In this document: positions 4,355 through 13,727 of the stretch, one piece after another
How the letters are laid out: the number at the start of each line of letters is the position of its first letter
Position numbering within the stretch: position 1 is the stretch's first letter
Source: Myxococcota bacterium
GTDB lineage: Bacteria > Myxococcota_A > Polyangia > Polyangiales > Sandaracinaceae
Reading direction: 5' to 3'
Length of the DNA: 14,649 nt
NCBI GenBank assembly: GCA_036149055.1
Contig: JAYZQJ010000177.1
Span: 1-14,649, forward strand
Notes under the pieces: generated by a model
Told to the model about the DNA's origin: nothing
Seen by the model: only the letters and a program-made list of their open reading frames with translations
Databases searched by the model: none
Made by a program: the position numbers and the translations under genes

Positions 4355-4555
4355 CCGGCCGGGTGGTGGCTTCATCCGGACGGGGAGACGTCCCCTCGGG
4401 GGCGTCGAAGAGGGAACCCGGTGTGAATCCGGGACTGTCCCGCAGCGGTGAGCGGAAACGAAAGCCGTCAACGCACTGGGCGCGAGCCTGGGAAGCGACG
4501 GCCGGTAGGAGCGACCTGGGTCGCGTGTCCGCGAGTCCGAAGACCTGCTCGAGGT
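4355..4555 (+). promoter_or_regulatory. Cobalamin (AdoCbl-type) riboswitch aptamer
   Basis: Conserved elements occur in the expected order: AGGGAA-cccGGTGtgAATCCggg-aCTGtcccgCAGCGGTga ... gCACTGgg ... GGGAAG ... B12 box gAGTCCGAAGACCTGC. It lies in the 5' leader of the 4654 gene. Boundaries are approximate. Confidence 0.93.
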
Positions 4556-4653: not shown

Positions 4654-5478
4654 ATGCGAACGACGATGGCGTGGGCGCTGCTGCTCACGAGCTGGACCGG
4701 CTGCGACGGCGGGGGGCCGATGTCCCCCGACGCGGCGACCCCGATGAGCGACGCCGCGGTCGAGGCGGTGTGCGGAGACGGCGCGCGGCAGCCGGGCGAG
4801 GGCTGCGACGACGGGAACGCGGAGACCGGAGACGGCTGCAGCGCCACCTGCGCGGTCGAGGCGCCCGCCGCCGACGCGGACGAGGTGGTCGACGCGCCCG
4901 ACGCCACCGGCGAGGGCTTCGGCGATCCCAGCCGGGCCGTCAACGGCGTGCGCGGCGGCGGCCTCACCGCCCAGAGCCTCGACGTCTACTCGATCTCGCT
5001 GGAGGGGCACCTCGTGCTCGGGTGGTCGGGCCGCCGGGTGATGGATGGCCCGGGCGTCGACCTGGTGGTGTTCGAGAACGCCTTCCACTACGGCGACGGC
5101 GCGACCTTCATGGATCCGGTCGTGGTCGAGGTCTCGAGCGACGGCGAGACCTGGGTCGCCTTCCCGCACGACTACGTGGCCGAGGACGAGGCGCGCTACT
5201 CGAACCGGGCCACCGACTGGCGCGGCTTCGCCGGGCGGACCCCGGTGCTCTTCCACGAGGAGGAGCGGGCGGAGCTCGATCGCTTCGACCCCGAAGAGGC
5301 GGGCGGCGACGGCTTCGACCTGGCGGACCTCGGGCTCGCCTCCATCCGCTACGTCCGGCTCAGCCCGGCCTCCGCGCACACCAACCCCGACACCGGCGCA
5401 CCGTTCCCGCGCGACCCGGTGAGCGACGGCCCGGACATCGACGGAGTCGCCGCGCGCTGGCTCGCGGAGGCGCCGTGA
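4654..5478 (+). CDS. Lipoprotein with a Myxococcus Cys-rich repeat plus a 'cell surface protein' domain (BtuH-like B12-binding candidate)
   Basis: 274 aa from ATG 4654 (the track ORF is over-extended through the riboswitch). Lipobox WTG-C, repeat VCGDGARQPGEGCDDGNAETGDGCSATCAVE, and C-domain motifs DGPGVDLVVFENAF, VEVSSDG, GGDGFDLADLGL..IRYVR. Confidence 0.8.
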   Translation: MRTTMAWALLLTSWTGCDGGGPMSPDAATPMSDAAVEAVCGDGARQPGEGCDDGNAETGDGCSATCAVEAPAADADEVVDAPDATGEGFGDPSRAVNGVRGGGLTAQSLDVYSISLEGHLVLGWSGRRVMDGPGVDLVVFENAFHYGDGATFMDPVVVEVSSDGETWVAFPHDYVAEDEARYSNRATDWRGFAGRTPVLFHEEERAELDRFDPEEAGGDGFDLADLGLASIRYVRLSPASAHTNPDTGAPFPRDPVSDGPDIDGVAARWLAEAP

Positions 5479-6683
5479 GGCTCGCGCTCGCGCTGGCCCT
5501 GGTCACGGGCTGCGCGCCGGCCGCCACCTGCGAGCTCGACGCGCCCCTGACCGCCGAGCCGGAGGCCGCCTGGGCGGTGGTCTCGAGCGACTACGCCTCG
5601 AGCGCCATCACCCTGCTCGGGCCCGACGGCGCGCTCGTCCGAGAGGGCTGGCTGAGCTCGGGGAGCGCGCCCCCGGGCATCGTCGCCAGCCTGAGCGGCG
5701 ACGTGGCGATCGCGAGCGGCCCGATCACCCCGTGCGTGGTTGCCGTGGTCGACCGGTTCGGCACCGACGTGGTCAGCTTCCTCGACCACTGCGCGGGCGA
5801 GGTCGTCTCGCAGGTCGACGTCGGCTCCAGCTTTCGCGCGAACCCGCACGACGTCATGCGACTCGACGAGCGCCGGGTGCTCGTCAGCCGACACGAGCCG
5901 AACCCGGGCGCCGACGATCCGCTCGGGGCCGGCAACGATCTGCTGGTCGTCGACTGGCGCGACGGCGAGGTGCTGCACGCGATCGATCTCTCGGCCCTCG
6001 ACGCCGAGGTGGACGGCGAGCGCCTCCCCGCGCGGCCGAGCCGGGTCGCGCCGCTCGGGCGCTTCGTGGTGATCGGGCTCGGGCGCGCCTCGCTCGACTT
6101 CATGGTTTCGGGGCCGGGCGCGGTGGCGGTCCTCGACCCGGAGAGCGGCGACGTCGAGGCGCTGACCCTCGACGGGCTCGAGGGCTGCGACGAGGTGGAC
6201 GGCGCCCCGGGCGGCGACGCGGCGCTCGTGACGTGCGGCGGGCCGGCCTTCGTGCAGGAGGACGCCCGGCGGGCGGGCGCCGGCCTCGCCACCCTCGCCC
6301 TCGACGGCGGCGAGGTGGTGGTGCGTCACGTCTGGCGGGCGGCCGAGCACCCCGAGGCGCCGGTCTTCAACGCCTGGGGCGTGCCGCTCTCGGCGGACCG
6401 GGCGGTGGCGGTCGCGATGGGGGACCTGCGCGAAGGGGTGAACGACCGGGTGGCGGTGATCGACCTGCCCAGCGGACGGGTGGAGCCGCTCTTCGAGGCC
6501 GGCTCGGCGTTCGTGGTCGGGGACGGCGCCTGGGATCCGCAGCGGGAGCTCCTGCTCGTGCCCGACGCCCACGAGGGGGCCGCGCGGCGCTTCTCGGGCG
6601 AGGCGCTCGAGCCCCTGCCGGCCGCGCCGACCGGGCCCTGCACCGGGCTGCCCCCGCGGGAGATCCGGCCGCTGTCGATTTAG
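5475..6683 (+). CDS. Lipoprotein, probable YncE-like beta-propeller (BtuG-like candidate)
   Basis: GTG 5475 overlaps the upstream TGA (GTGA). 402 aa with lipobox VTG-C and repeated short strands ending in D (VSFLD, LLVVD, VAVLD, VAVID), plus SDY and ANPHDV motifs. The fold is inferred. Confidence 0.75.
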   Translation: MRLALALALVTGCAPAATCELDAPLTAEPEAAWAVVSSDYASSAITLLGPDGALVREGWLSSGSAPPGIVASLSGDVAIASGPITPCVVAVVDRFGTDVVSFLDHCAGEVVSQVDVGSSFRANPHDVMRLDERRVLVSRHEPNPGADDPLGAGNDLLVVDWRDGEVLHAIDLSALDAEVDGERLPARPSRVAPLGRFVVIGLGRASLDFMVSGPGAVAVLDPESGDVEALTLDGLEGCDEVDGAPGGDAALVTCGGPAFVQEDARRAGAGLATLALDGGEVVVRHVWRAAEHPEAPVFNAWGVPLSADRAVAVAMGDLREGVNDRVAVIDLPSGRVEPLFEAGSAFVVGDGAWDPQRELLLVPDAHEGAARRFSGEALEPLPAAPTGPCTGLPPREIRPLSI

Positions 6684-6748
6684 GTGACGGAACGGCGCGA
6701 CCCCGGCCACCCAGTGATGCGCAGGATGGGGAGGACCCGGGAAATCAG

Positions 6749-8233
6749 ATGCATTCACTTCGACTTTCGCTTCGCCTCGCGTGCCTCGCGGGGCTCGCCC
6801 TCGCCGCCAGCGCGTGCGGAGGGCAGGTGCACGTGGGCGACGACGACGGGGGCGTCGGAGACAGCGACGGCGGCTCCAGCCAGTGCGGCCCGGTCGTCTG
6901 CGGCGCGGGCCTCGAGTGCTGTAACGCCAGCTGCGGCATCTGCGCCCCGCCCGGCGTCGCCTGCCCCGCGATCGCCTGCGCGGACGAGTGCACCACCAAC
7001 GCCGACTGCGCGGGCGGCGAGTACTGCCAGCTCGACGAGGGCGCCTGCGGCGGCGTGGGCGTGTGTACGCCGCGGCCGTCCGCCTGCGACGAGCTGTACG
7101 ATCCCGTCTGCGGCTGCGACGGCGTGACCCACTCGAACCGCTGCTCCGCGGCCGGCGCGGGCGTCAGCGTGGCCTCGGTCGGCGAGTGCGGCACGGATCC
7201 CGTCTGCGCGCCGCTCGACGCGCGCGGCGAGGGCGCCTGCGACGCGATCGTGGGCGTGACCTGGGACGGCACGCGCTGCCTCGAGATCAGCGGCTGCCGC
7301 TGCGTCGGCAGCGACTGCGGCCGGTACGGCGCCGGGGGGCTGGAGCGCTGCCAGCGCGAGTACGCCAGCTGCGGCACCTGCGCGGCCCAGGACGCCGAGG
7401 GGGTCGGGGACTGCCGCGCGCTGCTCGGCTACCGCTGGGACGGCGACGGCTGCTCCTCGATCGGCGGCTGCGAGTGCGCGGGGGCCGACTGCGACCGGCT
7501 GTACATGGACGAGTCGAGCTGCCTCGCCGACTTCGCGCACTGCGTCCCCGGCCCGGCCTGCGCGCGAAACGCGGACTGCGAGCGCGGGAGCTACTGCCAC
7601 CTCGAGCCCGGTCAGTGCCTCGCCGGCGATGGTGGGACGGGCTTCGGCGAGTGCCGGAGTCGTGTGACCGATGTGTTCTGCACCGACGACGGTCCGCCGA
7701 TCTGTGGCTGCGACGGCCGCACCTACGCCTGCGAGTCCGAGGCGAACCAGGCGGGGACCTCGGTGGCCTACGACGGCGCGTGCGACGGTGGGCCGTGCAG
7801 CCCGCAGATCGCCCGCGGCATCGGGCCCTGCTTCCTGGACCTGGGCGTGGCCTGGAACGGCACCGAGTGCGTGAGCGTCGGCGGCTGCACCTGTGAGGGC
7901 CCGGACTGCGACTCGCTCTACCGCTCGCACGCCGAGTGCCGGGCGGCGCGCACCGGCTGCGGCCCGGAGATGCGCCCCTGCGGCGGCTTCGCCGGCCTGG
8001 TGTGCGATCCCGACGAGTGGTGTGACTACCCCGACGGCAGCTTCTGCGGCGGCACCGACGAGACCGGCGTCTGCCGGCCGCGCCCGGACACCTGCCCGCC
8101 GGTGATCGACGAGGTCTGCGGCTGCGACGGGGTGCTCTACACGAGCGCCTGCGACGCCAACGCCTCCGGCTACGACACCTTCGGCGGTGCGCCCGGGCCG
8201 AGCGGCTGCGGCGCGCCCCCGCCGATGCCGTGA
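6749..8233 (+). CDS. Cys-rich lipoprotein with three Kazal-type and three Kunitz-like modules
   Basis: 494 aa from ATG 6749 with lipobox ASA-C. Kazal-like motifs YDPVCGCDGVTHSNRC, PPICGCDGRTYAC and DEVCGCDGVLYTSAC alternate with three copies of a ~55-aa 8-Cys module. Confidence 0.85.
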   Translation: MHSLRLSLRLACLAGLALAASACGGQVHVGDDDGGVGDSDGGSSQCGPVVCGAGLECCNASCGICAPPGVACPAIACADECTTNADCAGGEYCQLDEGACGGVGVCTPRPSACDELYDPVCGCDGVTHSNRCSAAGAGVSVASVGECGTDPVCAPLDARGEGACDAIVGVTWDGTRCLEISGCRCVGSDCGRYGAGGLERCQREYASCGTCAAQDAEGVGDCRALLGYRWDGDGCSSIGGCECAGADCDRLYMDESSCLADFAHCVPGPACARNADCERGSYCHLEPGQCLAGDGGTGFGECRSRVTDVFCTDDGPPICGCDGRTYACESEANQAGTSVAYDGACDGGPCSPQIARGIGPCFLDLGVAWNGTECVSVGGCTCEGPDCDSLYRSHAECRAARTGCGPEMRPCGGFAGLVCDPDEWCDYPDGSFCGGTDETGVCRPRPDTCPPVIDEVCGCDGVLYTSACDANASGYDTFGGAPGPSGCGAPPPMP

Positions 8234-8271: not shown

Positions 8272-9060
8272 GTGTGCACCATCGTCGCGATCAAGGGCCT
8301 GCACCCCGACTACGGGCTCGTGCTCGCCGCCAACCGCGACGAGTTCCGCGCCCGCCCCGCCCGCCCGCCCGAGGTGACGCACGTGTCGCCCCGGGTCGTG
8401 GCGGGCGTCGACGTGCCGAGCGGCGGCACCTGGCTCGGCGCCAACGAGCACGGCGTGTTCGTGGCGCTCACCAACCAGCGCCAGTACGAGGGCGCCGACG
8501 ACACCCTGGCCTCGCGCGGGCCGGTGGTCTCGAGCGCGCTGGCGGCCGGGCGGCTCGAGGCGGTGGACGCCTTCGTCGAGGGGCTCGACGCGCGCCGCTA
8601 CAACAGCTTCAACCTGTTCTGGGGCGACGCCACCACGCTCCGGGTGGGCTACGCCCGCCGGGCCCACGCGGCGGTGAGCGTGGAGACCCTCGGCGACGGC
8701 GTGTGGGTCCTGCCCAACGATCGCATCGGCTCGGCCGAGTTCCCGAAGACCCACCGGGCGATCGCGCTGACCGACCCGTTCGTCACCGCGCCCTGGCCGC
8801 GGCTGGCGGAGGGGCTGGCGGCGATGCTCGGTGACCACGAGGAGCCCCCGCTCGAGGCGGTCCCGGCGCCGCCGGCCGACGCGGTGTTCGATCACGCGAC
8901 GCTGCGTCGCCTCCAGGCGCTCTGCGTGCATCTGCCGGTGTACGGGACCCGGAGCGCCACCTTGCTCGCCCTGGCCCCGGGGCGGGTCGCCCACCACCTC
9001 TTCGCCGACGGGCCGCCCTGCGTGACACCCTTCGAGGACCAGATGGAGCTCTACCGATGA
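8272..9060 (+). CDS. NRDE family (TANGO2/DUF833) protein
   Basis: GTG 8272 gives the family-typical N-terminus MCT. Motifs LAANRDEF, GGTWLG, ALTN, SRG, YNSFNL and YGTRS are present. 262 aa. Confidence 0.92.
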   Translation: MCTIVAIKGLHPDYGLVLAANRDEFRARPARPPEVTHVSPRVVAGVDVPSGGTWLGANEHGVFVALTNQRQYEGADDTLASRGPVVSSALAAGRLEAVDAFVEGLDARRYNSFNLFWGDATTLRVGYARRAHAAVSVETLGDGVWVLPNDRIGSAEFPKTHRAIALTDPFVTAPWPRLAEGLAAMLGDHEEPPLEAVPAPPADAVFDHATLRRLQALCVHLPVYGTRSATLLALAPGRVAHHLFADGPPCVTPFEDQMELYR

Positions 9061-9548
9061 ACGTCCGCCCCCCGCTCGCCCTGGTCTTCACGACGGTCGC
9101 CACGGCGCTCGCGCTGCTCGGCTGCGGCGACACCCGCCGCGCGCCGTCCGGCCTCGACGTCGATCCCTGGCTCCCGAAGACCGAGGAGGAGCTGGACGCG
9201 CGCATCCTCGAGGCGCGCGCGCAGGCCCGCGAGAGCGACCGCCAGGTGCTGCTCGACTTCATCGCCGACTGGTGTGAGGACTGCCGCGAGGTCGTGCGGC
9301 TCAGCAAGCGCCACCCGGCCCGCGGGGTCATCGAGGAGAAGTACGTCGTCGTCTACGTCGAGGTCGGCCGCTTCGATCGGCACCGTCACCTGATCGAGCG
9401 CTACGCGATCGACCGCATCGCGACCCTGGTGGTGCTCGACCCCGAGTCGGGCGAGCGGGTGGCCCAGACGACGCTCGAGCCGATCACCGGCGGCCAGCGC
9501 GGGCTCACGTCGGCGCAGCTGGCGGCGTGGCTCCGCGATCCCAGCTGA
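9057..9548 (+). CDS. Thioredoxin-fold lipoprotein
   Basis: ATGA overlap with the NRDE stop, lipobox LLG-C, active-site context VLLDFIADWCEDC. 163 aa. Confidence 0.88.
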   Translation: MNVRPPLALVFTTVATALALLGCGDTRRAPSGLDVDPWLPKTEEELDARILEARAQARESDRQVLLDFIADWCEDCREVVRLSKRHPARGVIEEKYVVVYVEVGRFDRHRHLIERYAIDRIATLVVLDPESGERVAQTTLEPITGGQRGLTSAQLAAWLRDPS

Positions 9549-10863
9549 TCGCGTCGAAGCGCGCGCGCAGCGAGGCCCCTCGCCGCGGATCGAGCCGCTC
9601 GATCCAGCCCACTCGACCGTCGAGGTGGGCCCTGAAGTCGGCGTGCCCCTCCCGGTTCGCCGCCTCCGGGCCGCGGCGCGCGCAGTCCACGAGGATGGCC
9701 TCGAGCCGCTCGCGCTCGGCGCGCCGCACCGAGAGCTTCCGGTTCACGATCACGCCGCAGAGCTCCTGCCTCCCGCCCGCGCGCATGACCCGCGTCTTGC
9801 GATGATTCGGCGTCAGGCCCTCCTCGAGCGCGATCGCGCCGACGCGAGGGAGCAGGGCGTCGATCCGCCGCTCGAAGCCCGCGTCCCCCGAGAACGCGAG
9901 GTCGTCCGCGTAGCGCGTGTAGACGCCCCCGAGCGCCCGGGCGAGGCCGGCGAGGCGGCGGTCGAGCCCGAACGCGACGAGGTTCGCCAGCATCGGGGAG
10001 CTGGGCGCGCCCTGGGGCAGGTGGCTGGCCGCCAGTCGCTCGCGGAGGGCTCGGTGCTCGGGCCCGCGGAGCGCGCGCAGCACCCGGCGCGGCGTGGACG
10101 TCGTGGCGAGACCGGCGAGCAGCCCGGCGACCTCGCGGGGGTAGCCGCCGACCGCGAAGAGGCCGCGCACCCGGGCGAAGCCGATCTGCGCGAAGAAGTC
10201 GGTCAGGTCCATGCGCACGACCACGCGCTTGCCGACGTGCGCGCCGACGTGATCGAGGAGGTCTCGCCCGGGCACGAAGCCCTTGGCCGCCTCGTGCACC
10301 GGGAACGCGCAGAGCACGCGATCGAGGAGCCGCCGCTGCGCGATGGCGAGGGTGGGCTTGGGCGCCTCGAGCAGCCGCGCGCCGCCGCTCCGCTTCGGCA
10401 CGAGGCGGCAGACGTAGTGGTGGAGGCGAGCGTCGCGCGCCTTCGGGTTCATGCCGCGCACGTCCGCCAGCCAGTCGAGCGCGTCCAGCCGGAGCTCGAG
10501 GTGGGAGGCGACGTCGGCCGCGTCGAGGAGCGGCGGCGCCGCGAACGGGGCCGGGCGCATCACCCGGGCGGGCAAGAGCGCGCGGGTGACGTGGAAGGAG
10601 CGCAGCGCGCCGCCGGCGCCCGGATCCCGGGAGACCGCGCGCTCCCGCAGGGCGCGGAGCCGGCCGATCAGCGCGGCCCGATCCGTCGGCGCCTCCGGGA
10701 AGGTCACCGCCAGCCGGCGCGCGGCGTGCCGCAGGAAGCGTCGCTGGGCCTCGCCCTCCGCCCGCACGCAGCGCTCGAAGCGCGCGTGGATCGAAGCGAC
10801 GTCCCACGGCCCGGCGAGGGCGGCGTCGGCGAGCACCTCGAGCGCGCGGCGGTGATGCGTCAT
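9505..10863 (-). CDS. Retron-type reverse transcriptase with N-terminal extension
   Basis: 452 aa from ATG 10863. Motifs PKRSGGARLLEAPKP, AAKGF, region X variant DHVGAH, MDLTDFFAQI, HLPQGAPSSPMLAN, catalytic YTRYADDLAFSG (9901-9912), NHRKT and region Y variant QELCGVIVN. No maturase or endonuclease domain. Confidence 0.93.
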   Translation of the reverse strand: MTHHRRALEVLADAALAGPWDVASIHARFERCVRAEGEAQRRFLRHAARRLAVTFPEAPTDRAALIGRLRALRERAVSRDPGAGGALRSFHVTRALLPARVMRPAPFAAPPLLDAADVASHLELRLDALDWLADVRGMNPKARDARLHHYVCRLVPKRSGGARLLEAPKPTLAIAQRRLLDRVLCAFPVHEAAKGFVPGRDLLDHVGAHVGKRVVVRMDLTDFFAQIGFARVRGLFAVGGYPREVAGLLAGLATTSTPRRVLRALRGPEHRALRERLAASHLPQGAPSSPMLANLVAFGLDRRLAGLARALGGVYTRYADDLAFSGDAGFERRIDALLPRVGAIALEEGLTPNHRKTRVMRAGGRQELCGVIVNRKLSVRRAERERLEAILVDCARRGPEAANREGHADFRAHLDGRVGWIERLDPRRGASLRARFDAISWDRGATPPAAPT

Positions 10864-10871
10864 GGGCAGGT

Positions 10872-11025
10872 GACGGCGGGGGCCCGACGTGACGCTCCTG
10901 GCGCGAGCGGGTCTGCGTGTACGCGCAGCGAGGCTCGTGCGGTGATCGGCATGGTACGGGCATGTCCCCGGGGGAGCCCCGGGGAGGTGGAGCCGAGGCC
11001 CCACCGGGCTCGGGCCCCCACCGTC
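10872..11025 (-). ncRNA. Retron msr-msd non-coding RNA
   Basis: On the - strand, a2 GACGGUGGGGGCCCGA (11025-11010) pairs with a1 UCGGGCCCCCGCCGUC (10887-10872) over 16 bp with one G-U. G11009 follows a2 (AG) and faces G10888. msr hairpins lie at 11005-10986 (8 bp) and 10985-10965 (9 bp), and the msd hairpin at 10940-10901. It ends 8 nt before the RT ATG. Confidence 0.85.
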
Positions 11026-11039
11026 GCGAGGAAGCCTAC

Positions 11040-13727
11040 CTACCGGGGCAGCGCCCAGTCCATCGTGAAGAACCCGTGCGAGCGGTATTCGCAGCCCGTG
11101 CCTCCGCACGCCCACTGGCCGCGCGCCGGCCCCACGCGCTCGTCGTAGACGACGTAGTCGGGGAGGATGTCGGGCAGCGCCAGGCTCCGCCAGGTGCCGA
11201 GCGGTCGCGGGCCGGCGATGACGAGCACGGCGCGCTCGGGCGCGAGCGGGCTCGGCGCCACGAAGACGGCGCCGACCTGGGCTCCCGCGTGGCGCGTGTC
11301 GCCGACCGTCACCGCCTCCTCGCCCACCCGGATCGGCAGCCCGTCCGCCATGCGCGCGTGCACCGCGTTGCTGTGCGGCGGCCCGACCAGCACCAGGGTG
11401 CGCTCCCGGATCATCGCCTCGGTCACGTCGACGTCGTCGACGATCGGGTAGTCCACGATCCAGCCCTTGGGTCTCGCCCAGTGAGCCGCGACCAGCCGGT
11501 TGATCAAGGTGTGATCGGGGTCCTGGGTCCCGATCACGAACACGAGGGGCTCGTGGTAGACGTCGCGGATCGGCCCGCTCACGCCCTCGCGCTTGCTCCC
11601 CGGAGCCGGCCACGCCGCGGTCGAGACCCGCCAGCGCGCGTCGGCGCGCTCGAGGGTCAGGGGCGAGGCGCCGGTCAGGCGCTGCCCGTCGACGACCACG
11701 GTCAGCGGGCCTTCGACCTCGGGCGAGAAGGTCACCGCGCGCGCGCCGGTGATCGAGGCTTCGACGGTGGCGCCGTCGAGGCGGGCGTCGACCTCGGCGA
11801 AGGCGTCGGCCGCCTCGCGCGCCTCCACCCGGACCCAGTAGGCGGCGCGGGTCCGCTCGCGCGCGGTGCGCAGCCGGACGTGCGCGGGGGCCTCGGGGCG
11901 GCGATGGCGGCCGAGCCAGTCGAAGATGGCGCCGCCAGCGTAGGTCTCGGTCCAGACGTTGTGGCCGAGCTCAGGCTCGCGGTGCTCGTGCGGGTAGTCG
12001 AGCGCGTCGAGGCGGCGCGCGAGCACGCGGGTCCACTCGAGCGGGCGGTCCCGGGTGCCGCGGACGAGCAGGGTGGGGAGGTGCAGCCCGTTCTCGGCCC
12101 AGTCCACGTCGGAGCGGTGCGCGACGAGGAAGCGCTCCACCTCACCGAGCGCGTCGTGGTCCGTGTCCTGGCGCACCCGCTGGTCGTGATAGCCGGCGAG
12201 CGCGGCCGCCGCCGCGAAGCGGTCCGGGTGCCGGTAGGGCAGGTAGGCGGCGCCGGTCCCGCCCATCGAGCCGCCGGTGATGTAGACGCGGCGTGGATCC
12301 ACCCGGAAGCGGGCCTCGACGTCGGCGAGCGCCTCCATCACGTCGACCTCACCCGCGTGCCGGTAGTACGCCTGCCCCCGGCCGGTGGGCGCGACCACGA
12401 TCATCGGCCCCTGCCGCGGCGCCTCGCCGGTCCGACCGTGCCCGAGGAGCGTCTCGCCGCCCTCGTAGTCGCGCGCCAGGCCGAAGGTGTTGCGAAAGTA
12501 GTCGCCGGCGTTGCCCTTGTAGCCGTGCAAGGTGATCAGCACCGGCCAGGCGCGCGAGTCGCGATAGGCCGGCGGCACGAACAGCTCGTACTCCTGGGCC
12601 GTTCCGTCGAGGCGCGAGAAGAAGGCCATGCGCTCGTAGCCGCGGATCCGCGCGAAGGGATCCCGACCCCGCGCGAGGCTGCGCGTGATGCGCCGCGCGT
12701 CGGCCTGGAGCACGTTGCGCCACGCCTGGTCCCCGTCGTGCTCCCGGACGACCCGGGTCAGCTCGTCGATCCGCCAGGCGATCGGCGCGCGGGCTCCCTC
12801 CGGCGCCTCCCCCAGCGCCTCGCGCAGCTCGGCCGCGGCGGCGAGGGCGCGGCGGTCGCTGATCAGGTGCCGACGACCGGGCCGCGCCTCGCGCTCCCCC
12901 ACCAGGGCGGTGACGTCGAGCAGCCCGCGGTCCGGGATCGCCCACGCGCGCTCGAGCGGCGCCTCGAGGGCGAGCGTCTCGCCGTCGATCACCACGCTCG
13001 GCGCGCCCTCGAGCCCCCCGCCCGGGCGGTGCAGCCGGAGCCGGACCTCGGGCCCCTCGTCGCCGAGCCCCCGCGTCTCGTCCAGCGCCACCGAGCGCTG
13101 CCGCAGCGTGACCTGGGTTGCCTCGTCGAGCTCGCCGTAGGTGATCGCGACCGCGCCGGGGCCCGGCCGGAGCCGCGCGCTCAGCAGCCGGACCGCGCCG
13201 CGCCAGGCGCCCCGCTCGGGCTTCTCGAAGCGCACCGAGAGCGCGCGCTCCCCCGCGGCGAGAGGGAGGCGCACCAGGCCCCAGTCGCGATGGAAGCGAT
13301 CGGGGCTCTCCACCCGCCCGAGCGCCTCGCCGTCGAGCGAGATCTCCGCCGCCCCCCGCATCCCGACCATCACCCACGCGTGCGTGTCGCGCGGCACCAG
13401 CAAGGTGGCCGACAGCGTGATCGCGTCGCTCCCCGCCGGTGCCGCGTCCGCGAGCTCCATGCGCCACGAGGGGAACGCGACCACCTCCTCGCCCACCCTC
13501 CAGGTCGAGAGGAAGCCCTCCGGCCCCGGGCTCGCCAGCGGTCGGCCCTCGGCCAGCGCCCGCGGATCGGGCGGCGGCTCCGCCGTCTCCCGCGGAGGCT
13601 CGCTCGGCTCGGTCGGCTCGGCGACCGAGACCGGCTCGGGCGGCGCCGTCGGCTCGGCCGGCCGCGGCGGCTCCGGATGCCCACACCCCGCGAGCCACAC
13701 CACCAACACACACGCCGCCGCCCTCAT
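11040..13727 (-). CDS. Large lipoprotein with an alpha/beta-hydrolase domain (S9 peptidase / PHB-depolymerase-like esterase)
   Basis: 895 aa. Lipobox LAG-C, Pro/Glu-rich linker, PVLITLHG, nucleophile elbow YITGGSMGG, candidate Asp (GTRD) and His (LGHNVW), and an additional C-terminal alpha/beta domain. Confidence 0.88.
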   Translation of the reverse strand: MRAAACVLVVWLAGCGHPEPPRPAEPTAPPEPVSVAEPTEPSEPPRETAEPPPDPRALAEGRPLASPGPEGFLSTWRVGEEVVAFPSWRMELADAAPAGSDAITLSATLLVPRDTHAWVMVGMRGAAEISLDGEALGRVESPDRFHRDWGLVRLPLAAGERALSVRFEKPERGAWRGAVRLLSARLRPGPGAVAITYGELDEATQVTLRQRSVALDETRGLGDEGPEVRLRLHRPGGGLEGAPSVVIDGETLALEAPLERAWAIPDRGLLDVTALVGEREARPGRRHLISDRRALAAAAELREALGEAPEGARAPIAWRIDELTRVVREHDGDQAWRNVLQADARRITRSLARGRDPFARIRGYERMAFFSRLDGTAQEYELFVPPAYRDSRAWPVLITLHGYKGNAGDYFRNTFGLARDYEGGETLLGHGRTGEAPRQGPMIVVAPTGRGQAYYRHAGEVDVMEALADVEARFRVDPRRVYITGGSMGGTGAAYLPYRHPDRFAAAAALAGYHDQRVRQDTDHDALGEVERFLVAHRSDVDWAENGLHLPTLLVRGTRDRPLEWTRVLARRLDALDYPHEHREPELGHNVWTETYAGGAIFDWLGRHRRPEAPAHVRLRTARERTRAAYWVRVEAREAADAFAEVDARLDGATVEASITGARAVTFSPEVEGPLTVVVDGQRLTGASPLTLERADARWRVSTAAWPAPGSKREGVSGPIRDVYHEPLVFVIGTQDPDHTLINRLVAAHWARPKGWIVDYPIVDDVDVTEAMIRERTLVLVGPPHSNAVHARMADGLPIRVGEEAVTVGDTRHAGAQVGAVFVAPSPLAPERAVLVIAGPRPLGTWRSLALPDILPDYVVYDERVGPARGQWACGGTGCEYRSHGFFTMDWALPR

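Follow-up and report, generated by a model that had tools for sequence, protein, structure and literature searches.

The 14,649-nt stretch of contig JAYZQJ010000177.1 from a Myxococcota bacterium (GCA_036149055.1) that was analysed here, hereafter the window, very probably carries an intact retron of the stand-alone reverse transcriptase (RT) clade 11, as regards both identity and chemistry, the clade-11 label being drawn from PADLOC model names, taxonomy and architecture. The PADLOC outgroup model is linked to clade 11 in Table 1 of PMC13712802, and stand-alone cassettes are described as part of clade 11 by Mestre et al. (2020, PMC7736814). The locus is a new example of a catalogued lineage and not a new kind of system. 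A preliminary description of the window had called the retron complete, which held for the RNA–RT cassette; unlike the tripartite retrons of the Ec86 type, it carries no effector gene in cis.

Fold of the RNA upstream of the RT gene

The RNA and its predicted product comprise the following features:

11010..11025, minus strand: 5' arm of the closing stem (a2 of the preliminary description), from the fold and a repeat finder; inner five pairs covary
11009, minus strand: predicted branching G in a GAGC context, from sequence and conservation among relatives
10986..11005, minus strand: msr hairpin 1, 8 bp with a 4-nt loop; length varies among relatives
10965..10985, minus strand: msr hairpin 2, 9 bp with a 3-nt loop; the most conserved element
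10941..10964, minus strand: unstructured linker, expected from known retrons to be the site of the RT stop and of the RNA–DNA hybrid
10901..10940, plus strand: msd hairpin, folding better as the plus (cDNA) strand
10889..10964, plus strand: predicted msDNA, 5' end at 10889, probable 3' end at about 10945–10965, about 57–77 nt
10888, minus strand: G opposite the branching G, conserved in relatives
10872..10887, minus strand: 3' arm of the closing stem; 8 nt separate it from the RT start codon

Between the upstream stop at 11040 and the RT ATG at 10863 lies a 176-nt gap, and the geometry previously claimed for it, namely 16-bp arms with one G-U pair and G11009 facing G10888, proved exact at every coordinate. 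The 16 pairs of the arms include U11020–G10877 as the single wobble (A-C on the plus strand) and showed pair probabilities of 0.87–1.0; the stop of the upstream esterase gene lies 14 nt ahead of the 5' arm, and in the ensemble G11009 and G10888 were 71% and 62% unpaired, respectively. Folding likewise recovered both msr hairpins, and the msd hairpin, with the sequence given in the preliminary description, lies exactly at 10901–10940 of the plus strand, for which DNA parameters gave −14.0 kcal/mol as against −9.6 kcal/mol for the minus strand.

The fold of the ncRNA had a z of −4.79, with none of 200 shuffles equally stable, and its arm score of 43.5 was reached by none of 1000 dinucleotide shuffles, whose maximum was 36.5. 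The plus strand also folded strongly (z −3.80), with the lower minimum free energy of the two (−110.3 vs −101.1), so that energy by itself cannot choose the strand. In addition, a generic repeat finder returned 55 inverted repeats in the GC-rich 1.8 kb around the locus. Given these repeats, the case for the RNA stands on conservation, not on one sequence. At the gathering threshold of Rfam the ncRNA had no match, six chance matches with E up to 10 being returned.

Conservation of the RNA among relatives

Strong arms were found in 48 of the 78 upstream regions, compared with 5/78, 8/74 and 3/78 in the controls. These 48 were picked without motif selection, and 40 of them showed the G/G closure, as against 1, 1 and 0 in the controls. 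Among the held-out matches of the RNA model, as aligned by the model, the branching position was G in 27 of 27 and the facing position was G in 26 of 27. The covariation analysis suggested in the preliminary description showed the arms to be conserved and covarying across relatives: 21 of the 27 pairs compensated, and the covariation score was 0.409, compared with 0.149 after shuffling and at most 0.093 after sliding.

In hairpin 2, 99.8% of the cells were paired, with four invariant and three compensating pairs, and the msd hairpin showed compensatory changes in all 14 pairs. The third loop position of hairpin 2 is C in the window and A in 58 of the 59 rows; this A is also absent from several held-out relatives. 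The RTs of Ec86 and Ec73 bind 8–9-bp stems with 3-nt loops (PMC6868368), and by analogy msr hairpin 2 is likely the hairpin recognized by the RT.

The RNA model matched 76 of the 80 related RT loci, 58 of these 76 having been training rows, and none of the eight type-XIII-side loci. Meanwhile, wobble pairs favoured the RNA strand in the arms and the msr and the cDNA strand in the msd, where A-C pairs (T-G in the cDNA) numbered 30 vs 4 G-U pairs in 42 dereplicated rows. Such a strand asymmetry is what msDNA synthesis predicts, and it lends independent support to an msd hairpin selected as DNA.

The RNA, which had gone unrecognised in the preliminary description, is a member of a conserved family that precedes clade-11-like RTs and occurs with them in at least six phyla. 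We infer that this family is the published clade-11 'OutgroupA' structure; in line with it, our own RNA model gave a full match in Burkholderia (80.7 bits) and a partial one in Tsukamurella (37.5 bits). The earlier reading of an msr–msd–RT retron with a predicted branch at G11009, an msd hairpin and a predicted start at 10889 is supported. Retron RNAs are contiguous, with terminal arms of 8–30 bp, an unpaired G directly after the 5' arm, one to three short msr hairpins and a longer msd hairpin, and the window RNA shows all of these.

Predicted msDNA

The predicted start of the msDNA at 10889 follows from the assumption that the G facing the branching G is skipped, as is the G opposite the branching G in Ec86. 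The first base after the facing G was G in 36 of the 59 rows, consistent with a start at 10889, where the 10-mer given in the preliminary description begins on the plus strand; the work of Khan et al. is also consistent with this predicted start. The distance from 10889 to hairpin 2 was 75–82 nt in all 59 aligned rows and 77 nt in the window. The earlier estimate of 65–75 nt for the msDNA lies within the predicted bounds of about 57–77 nt, the exact length being beyond computation. The predicted 76-nt msDNA did not exceed its own shuffles in stability (z −0.05). Known retrons keep an RNA–DNA hybrid of 5–10 nt (PMC6868368), and in them the 2'-OH of the branching G primes reverse transcription (section 6 of the same paper); by analogy, the 2'-OH of G11009 would serve as the primer here.

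Reverse transcriptase and its N-terminal domain

The RT gene and its landmarks are as follows:

9505..10863, minus strand: retron RT of 452 aa, clade-11 ('outgroup') type, from profiles, PDB and Foldseek
10561..10863, minus strand: helical N-terminal domain of about 100 aa, of no named family, typical of the lineage
10237..10251, minus strand: region X, with HVGAH where Ec67 has NAYKH in the alignment; H209 invariant in 92/92
9901..9912, minus strand: YADD catalytic motif, residues 318–321; YADD in 92/92
9754..9762, minus strand: start of region Y, LCG replacing VTG, from the alignment

The PADLOC models RT_other and RT_outgroup matched the RT at 476 and 447 bits, respectively, vs 304 bits for RT_XIII; RT_Ec107-like gave 163 bits. 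The best 14 PDB sequence matches and the top Foldseek matches were retron RTs, and the RT core aligned with 7v9x_A at a TM of 0.80 (by target) and an rmsd of 3.7 (Foldseek). The YADD motif named in the preliminary description is present, whereas the textbook NAxxH and VTG are replaced by HVGAH and LCG. In region X the H is retained and the N and A of NAxxH are replaced; in region Y the G is retained, and the lineage carries LCG in 40/92, LAG in 20/92 and VTG in 13/92. The region-X N is absent from the validated RTs of Mx65 and Ec48 as well, and among the aligned sequences departures from NAxxH and VTG are the norm in this RT lineage. By its profile and structure matches the RT belongs to the retron group. 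For the phylogenetic placement suggested earlier, a quick tree was built without validated reference RT sequences; in it the 77-row group of the window stood apart from the type XIII RTs (SH-aLRT 98). The PADLOC ranking and this tree put the RT with clade 11 and not with clade 10.

The N-terminal domain was found at 68 of the 80 loci and was undetected in the type-XIII-side relatives; modelled alone, it reached a pLDDT of 87.9. Of the profile hits with at least 50 residues after the domain, 81 of 95 continued into the RT core, and the 14 with a long non-RT tail looked by eye like frameshifted RT starts; no stand-alone or other-fusion copies were shown among the profile hits. Pfam gave the domain no family (one marginal hit in 60), Foldseek gave no match at E 0.001 or better, the ESM Atlas returned an RT cluster and otherwise leads below the bar only, and the best VIA-align match, Cas12c (Z 5.8, rmsd 4.2, 82 aligned), was in the chance range for helical bundles. 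These structure and family searches do not show the domain to be a new fold. It has no invariant residue, and its three columns conserved at 90% or more (A12, G18 and W43) hold small or aromatic residues, the window RT having F43 at the W43 column.

Limits of the cassette and search for an effector

The locus is laid out as follows:

9553..11066, minus strand: whole cassette (ncRNA, RT and the final 8 codons of the gene upstream), from comparison with G001; no further gene within
11040..13727, minus strand: host gene upstream, encoding an esterase-like alpha/beta-hydrolase; a flank outside the system
9057..9548, plus strand: convergent thioredoxin-like host gene, the other flank

In a genome of the same genus (G001), the sequence on either side, as far as 9552 and again from 11067, matched the window at about 80%, and 119 unrelated nt take the place of the 1,514-nt RNA–RT cassette. 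This empty site limits the complete unit to the RNA and the RT alone, and no effector is encoded in cis at this locus. PADLOC matched none of the neighbours (esterase, thioredoxin-like and TANGO2 genes). The last 13 codons and the stop of the RT are antisense of the neighbouring gene. Retention of Trp441 through selection on the overlapping host codon was considered and rejected, the relative L115 having the same codons and no adjoining RT.

An all-vs-all comparison of 3,132 ORFs at the RT loci gave lineage synteny only, and no neighbour family recurred across phyla beyond 2–6 loci of generic families. The flanking genes across loci were ordinary metabolic and housekeeping ones. In a set of 104 flanking ORFs drawn from 58 of the 80 loci, PADLOC matched five, of which three were generic OmpA/ABC and two were real-looking defence genes; this set excluded 22 near-duplicate, truncated or type-XIII-side loci, and some of its ORFs are perhaps spurious. 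The cassette occupies a fixed site in one acidobacterial lineage (12 loci); among relatives it is patchy, and its sites differ between genomes. No integrase, tRNA site, evident target duplication or convincing flanking repeat was found at the locus. Viral contigs held no close relative (best 39% identity), and phages gave one 37% match. Among plasmids, five large plasmid records came up.

A promoter and terminator scan of the locus returned no such site. Contigs from RNA runs of two studies cover the ncRNA, a weak line of evidence, and join the esterase 3' end to it, and both variants in them lie at unpaired positions. These contigs do not cover the RT, an absence that is not informative. DNA run X12 gave short spurious pieces only.

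Proposed mechanism and function

In the proposed mechanism, a 1.5-kb two-part cassette would be gained or lost between two host genes. Its minus-strand transcript would fold with the 16-bp arms closed, a structure shown by conservation, and region Y of the RT would bind msr hairpin 2, as in Ec86 and Ec73. Upon priming at the G11009 2'-OH, G10888 would be skipped and copying would run from 10889 through the msd hairpin; the RT would probably halt in the linker ahead of hairpin 2, and host RNase H would leave 5–10 nt of hybrid. The predicted product is a branched RNA–DNA with a hairpin DNA of about 57–77 nt, bound to the RT.

As for its purpose, our guess, which we hold only tentatively, is that the RT–msDNA particle works, as sensor or as antitoxin, on a partner whose gene lies elsewhere, with phage defence as the most plausible setting. 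On the other side, only two of the 104 flanking ORFs look like defence genes, and the searches of viral contigs and phages gave no close relative. The literature searched, with most subscription papers outside its coverage, yielded no demonstrated function for 'retron' with 'clade 11' in the text available, no match joining retron, Ec107, orphan, effector and phage defense from 2021, and none joining retron, clade 11 and RT-DNA. The locus offers a clean test case for the question, raised in Mestre et al. (PMC7736814), of what role retrons without a linked effector have.

It is rather unlikely that the cassette has been domesticated, with its msDNA or RT in a non-defence cellular role. A cellular function is suggested by Mestre et al. 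for clades with vertical inheritance (PMC7736814), and the ordinary neighbours, the fixed acidobacterial site, the RT GC3 of 0.947, like that of the host genes (0.958–0.968), and the presence of the RNA in RNA runs agree with it; however, the patchy presence and varied sites suit an accessory element and not a core function. We also regard as unlikely a selfish or near-neutral mobile cassette that, like Ec107, would persist by spreading horizontally to intergenic gaps and bring the host no benefit. The clean empty site, the lack of a partner and the RT stop borrowed from the neighbour's antisense fit such an element, as does Ec107 itself, which takes the place of a short intergenic palindrome, but RT and RNA are each single copy in the genome, an integrase, tRNA site and evident target duplication are lacking, and both RNA and RT are strongly conserved over at least six phyla, which needs some selection.

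A one-protein system, in which the lineage-specific N-terminal domain would be a built-in effector or sensor held in check by the RNA–msDNA, appears quite unlikely. RT-fused effectors exist in other retron types (PMC7736814), and the occurrence of the domain at 68/80 loci, its confident fold when modelled alone, its non-detection on the type-XIII side and the RT linkage of 81/95 longer hits speak for it; its conservation, with three columns at 90% or more, no invariant residue and F43 in the window, is not catalytic-looking, and myxobacterial type XIII RTs are N-terminally extended yet have separate partners. If it were true, clade-11 retrons would be self-contained, forming a widespread 1.5-kb one-protein system outside defence islands, and this locus would be the minimal unit with exact empty-site boundaries.

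That the copy is decayed, with the right ancestry and msDNA production lost, is improbable. The RT differs at ten columns that are at least 85% conserved, the loop of hairpin 2 has changed from A to C, and the native stop is lost; the ten departures together with the loop change make reduced activity of the window retron possible. Against decay, the full 452-aa frame is whole in 12/12 cluster members (4–7 substitutions each), the RNA-contig variants fall at unpaired positions, and the loop A is missing in several held-out relatives too. It is highly improbable that the locus belongs with Mx65 and Mx162 in type XIII and has its partners elsewhere: the GAGC context, the substituted region-X asparagine as in Mx65, the similar predicted size and the 304 bits on RT_XIII accord with this, whereas RT_XIII gave 438–540 for the relatives' true type XIII RTs and RT_outgroup gave less, an order that the window RT inverts; the window RT sits on a separate tree branch, and the RNA model matched 0/8 such loci. 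Finally, a type VIII-like esterase-linked retron, with the co-oriented esterase gene upstream supplying the effector, is scarcely credible: the stop of that gene 14 nt ahead of the 5' arm, the RNA contigs bridging its 3' end and the ncRNA, and the putative serine esterase of type VIII retrons (PMC7736814) might suggest it, but six orthologue loci (63–80% identity) have no RT in the available sequence, the family recurs at 0/80 RT loci, no type VIII model is among the 25 PADLOC matches listed, and the G001 empty site largely refutes it.

Comparison with known retrons

The preferred reading, an intact clade-11 retron, places the locus beside clade 11 as described in PMC7736814 and PMC13712802 ('clade11-A', 'OutgroupA' RNA model), with which it shares the best profile, the lack of an accessory gene and the upstream msr–msd RNA. 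The taxa of the relatives (Pseudomonadota, Actinomycetota and Acidobacteriota, including Bryobacterales) fit clade11-A. Clade 11 according to Mestre et al. is essentially actinobacterial (PMC7736814), whereas the host here is myxobacterium-related; the clade-11 list of Khan et al. includes Myxococcus xanthus DZ2. The window retron differs from clade 11 in its short hairpin 1, the C in the hairpin-2 loop and the borrowed C-terminus. Clade-11 members were built and assayed for RT-DNA by Khan et al., and two, chosen for RT-DNA production, were taken to editing tests. The family alignment allows precise prediction of the branch point and template, and a retron with a short GC-rich msDNA could join the editing tool sets, for which clade-11 members have already been surveyed.

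With type XIII, or clade 10 (Mx65, Mx162, Sa163 and Ne144), the locus has in common the myxobacterial host group, an N-terminally extended RT and a short predicted msDNA. The likeness to Mx65 drawn in the preliminary description stood for size and for the GAGC branch context, common to Mx65 and the window RNA, but not for the RT, which lies outside the type XIII of Mx65 and Mx162; type XIII has another RT clade and RNA family, and its SWIM/WGR/HEAT partners are not beside the window RT. Retron-Eco1 (Ec86) and Eco2 (Ec67) share the RT-core fold, YADD, closing stem, branching G and an msr hairpin with a short stem and a 3-nt loop, and differ in that the window RT is about 22–25% identical to theirs, has altered NAxxH and VTG and an extra N-terminal domain, and has no linked effector and no recognisable fused one. 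Retron-Eco5 (Ec107), of the stand-alone branch of clade 2, is likewise an effector-less two-part cassette, set between genes that have only a short gap between them in relatives; its RT belongs to an unrelated clade, and the window RT is the longer.

Predicted RNA fold and possible transcription

Fold prediction on the - strand revealed all the elements claimed in the preliminary description (arms, unpaired G, two msr hairpins and an msd hairpin) at their expected positions:

176-nt gap between the esterase-like gene and the RT start, - strand: ncRNA
11025-11010 and 10887-10872, - strand: terminal arms, 16 bp with one U-G pair (predicted fold)
11009, - strand: unpaired G, the predicted branching G, opposite G10888 (predicted fold)
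11005-10986 and 10985-10965, - strand: two adjacent msr hairpins inside the arms (predicted fold)
10901-10940, - strand: longer interrupted msd hairpin inside the arms (predicted fold)
10863-9505, - strand: RT ORF, 452 aa, YADD at residues 318-321

The gap folded with a z-score of -4.79 on this strand, and the arm score was reached by none of 1000 shuffles. Because the + strand also folded strongly (z-score -3.80, with a lower MFE than the - strand) and the predicted 76-nt DNA was no more stable than its own shuffles, single-sequence energy was not decisive, and conservation is the deciding evidence for a retron RNA.

Contigs from three RNA runs (two studies) spanned 10818-11144, 10870-11127 and 10900-11090, and in two runs were the only long pieces in the searched stretch (rough chance 7-13% each). 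These contigs hint faintly at expression of the retron RNA; they indicate no strand or expression level and may include DNA. They reach into the esterase gene, which places the probable transcript start upstream of the gap. Two variants in the contigs both lay at unpaired positions, and none at the loop C of 10974.

Conservation of the RNA in relatives

Of 92 related loci in GTDB genomes, the best 80 were used to sample the RNA family. A motif-blind search for strong arms enclosing 95-165 nt succeeded for 48 of the 78 upstream regions that could be used, versus 5/78 downstream, 8/74 far-upstream and 3/78 shuffled regions, and a G facing a G closed 40 of the 48 upstream arms versus 1, 1 and 0 in the respective controls. 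For covariation, the window was aligned with 58 loci chosen by short motifs including both Gs, after one mis-anchored locus was dropped; conservation of these Gs within the alignment is therefore circular and was not used. Covariation, proposed as a check in the preliminary description, was present: 95.6% of cells in the 59 rows were paired, 21 of 27 pairs showed compensatory change, and the covariation score was 0.409 versus 0.149 for shuffled, a test inflated by row relatedness, and at most 0.093 for slid alignments.

A covariance model built from the alignment matched 76 of the 80 loci, a figure that includes 58 training rows. Of the four loci missed, two had no upstream DNA. None of eight type-XIII-side loci of the relatives (six PADLOC-confirmed) was matched. 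Among held-out sources it matched 27 of 29, and in the alignment fitted to the model the branch G was present in 27/27 and the facing G in 26/27. The RNA occurs as a single copy in the genome.

Some members deviated. In L095 (1094-1236, - strand) of the relative G012, the RNA interior was inverted between the arms relative to the RT gene. Either the assembly flipped at the inverted repeat, or the inversion is genuine, in which case it would inactivate the retron. Four planctomycete loci (L074 3145-3311, L075 4480-4629, L078 4465-4614, L079 4536-4698) branched separately; their msd hairpins were long and near-perfect, their model scores were low (31-45 bits), and they probably represent the second clade-11 RNA family. 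L039 (4666-4800) retained arms and msr hairpins without the msd hairpin found in its close relative L026, and is possibly a natural msd deletion.

Apparent strand of selection and predicted msDNA

Wobble pairs were counted in 42 rows dereplicated at 85% identity, one misaligned row having been dropped. Among the non-Watson-Crick pairs, the arms had 29 G-U and 10 A-C, and msr hairpin 2 had 35 and 1; the msd stems showed the opposite bias, with 19 and 11 A-C against 4 and 0 G-U. Two positions, of which one closes the loop, contribute most of this signal, and the rows are related. Because A-C in the transcript is T-G in the reverse transcript, selection on the msd hairpin appears to act on the cDNA strand, which is what msDNA synthesis would predict. 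As DNA, this hairpin in the window scored -14.0 kcal/mol on the + strand versus -9.6 on the - strand.

In Ec86, the facing G is skipped at the start of reverse transcription. Such a skip fits the report of Khan et al. that msDNA most often begins with G, since the predicted first base was G in 36 of 59 rows. Counted from 10889, the template in the window measured 77 nt up to the base of hairpin 2 (75-82 nt across all 59 rows) and 52 nt up to the distal end of the msd hairpin. With the 5-10 nt hybrid reported for known retrons (PMC6868368), the msDNA should thus be about 57-77 nt, which leaves the preliminary estimate of 65-75 nt plausible. With its 9 bp and 3-nt loop, hairpin 2 is shaped like the hairpins that the Ec86 and Ec73 RTs reportedly bind (PMC6868368).

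Reverse transcriptase

The ATG start was consistent with the N-termini of related proteins; a longer reading of 702 aa, which overlaps the esterase gene, lacks credibility. PADLOC scored the RT at 476 bits for RT_other and 447 for RT_outgroup, far over 304 for RT_XIII, and ranked 25 of 31 relatives likewise and six as type XIII. NCBIfam returned retron families only, all below cutoff, and PDB sequence and fold matches were headed by the retron RTs Ec67, Ec86 and Ec78. Phylogenetic placement, raised as a check in the preliminary description, was performed with a quick midpoint-rooted IQ-TREE of 89 rows, none a validated reference RT; the window grouped with Myxococcus and actinobacterial proteins among 77 rows that were separated from the type XIII rows (SH-aLRT 98), its closest named neighbours being Sandaracinaceae/Polyangia genomes. 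Across 92 aligned proteins, the key H of region X (HVGAH) was invariant and the G of region Y (starting LCG) at least 90% conserved, with non-canonical forms prevailing in the lineage. The RT is single-copy in the genome, and several same-family genomes carry two or three RT matches.

Cassette boundaries and neighbourhood

In the same-genus genome G001, both flanking genes are adjacent. The match to the window (~80%) runs up to 9552 and resumes at 11067, and the two matching parts lie 119 nt apart in G001 rather than 1,514 nt. This genome (L092) has a type XIII RT elsewhere. No RT was found at 13 flank loci of relatives within the at most 1.5 kb examined on each side, which favours gain of the cassette in this lineage. 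The cassette holds RNA and RT only, and no stop of its own: the last 13 codons and stop of the RT (9505-9548) are antisense of the thioredoxin-like gene, which thereby supplies Trp441, conserved in 76 of 92 proteins, and 12 more codons. This borrowed C-terminus suggests that the junction involved microhomology or that a deletion followed later.

Elsewhere in the window, a cobalamin riboswitch (RF00174, 91.3 bits; 4388-4546, + strand) precedes several co-oriented ORFs (~4654-8233) without clear families and lies near a TonB-dependent receptor gene (217-2220, - strand). Close to the end of the contig (~13880-14400), short tandem repeats of low complexity yield repetitive spurious ORFs.

Possible function and comparison with known retrons

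The cassette very probably works as a retron. As to its purpose, a partner in trans, likely in defence, is tentatively put forward. Against a defence role, clear defence genes numbered only two among 104 flanking ORFs, each next to a clade-11 retron, the DISARM-like DrmD (L028, 1553-4414, - strand) and the Wadjet JetA (L060, 6465-8000, + strand), and no close relatives were found on viral contigs or phages. Mestre et al. (PMC7736814) left effectors in trans versus another role undecided for stand-alone clade 11. A cellular role is rather doubtful; in its favour, genes flanking related RTs were ordinary for the most part, and the largest common neighbourhood among the 80 loci was a 12-locus acidobacterial block. 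A selfish cassette is unlikely. Improbable is an effector built into the N-terminal helical domain (~100 aa), which was found in 68 of 80 loci and matched no assignable family in sequence-family and structure searches.

Mestre et al. (PMC7736814) assign Mx65 and Mx162 to clade 10 (type XIII) and report that clade 11 contains stand-alone cassettes. The SPIRE survey (PMC13712802) ties clade11-A to the OutgroupA model, and its entry gives 71 members, an accessory domain in none and no assigned novelty score. Khan et al. list 18 clade-11 retrons, nine with RT-DNA test vectors, and took two, one from Myxococcus xanthus DZ2, into editing tests prioritising RT-DNA producers; from that choice, clade-11 msDNA synthesis has probably been demonstrated already. 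The window cassette shows the testable features of the clade-11 stand-alone retrons and lacks those of type XIII (Mx65/Mx162) and tripartite retrons, and thus adds a member to an already catalogued group.
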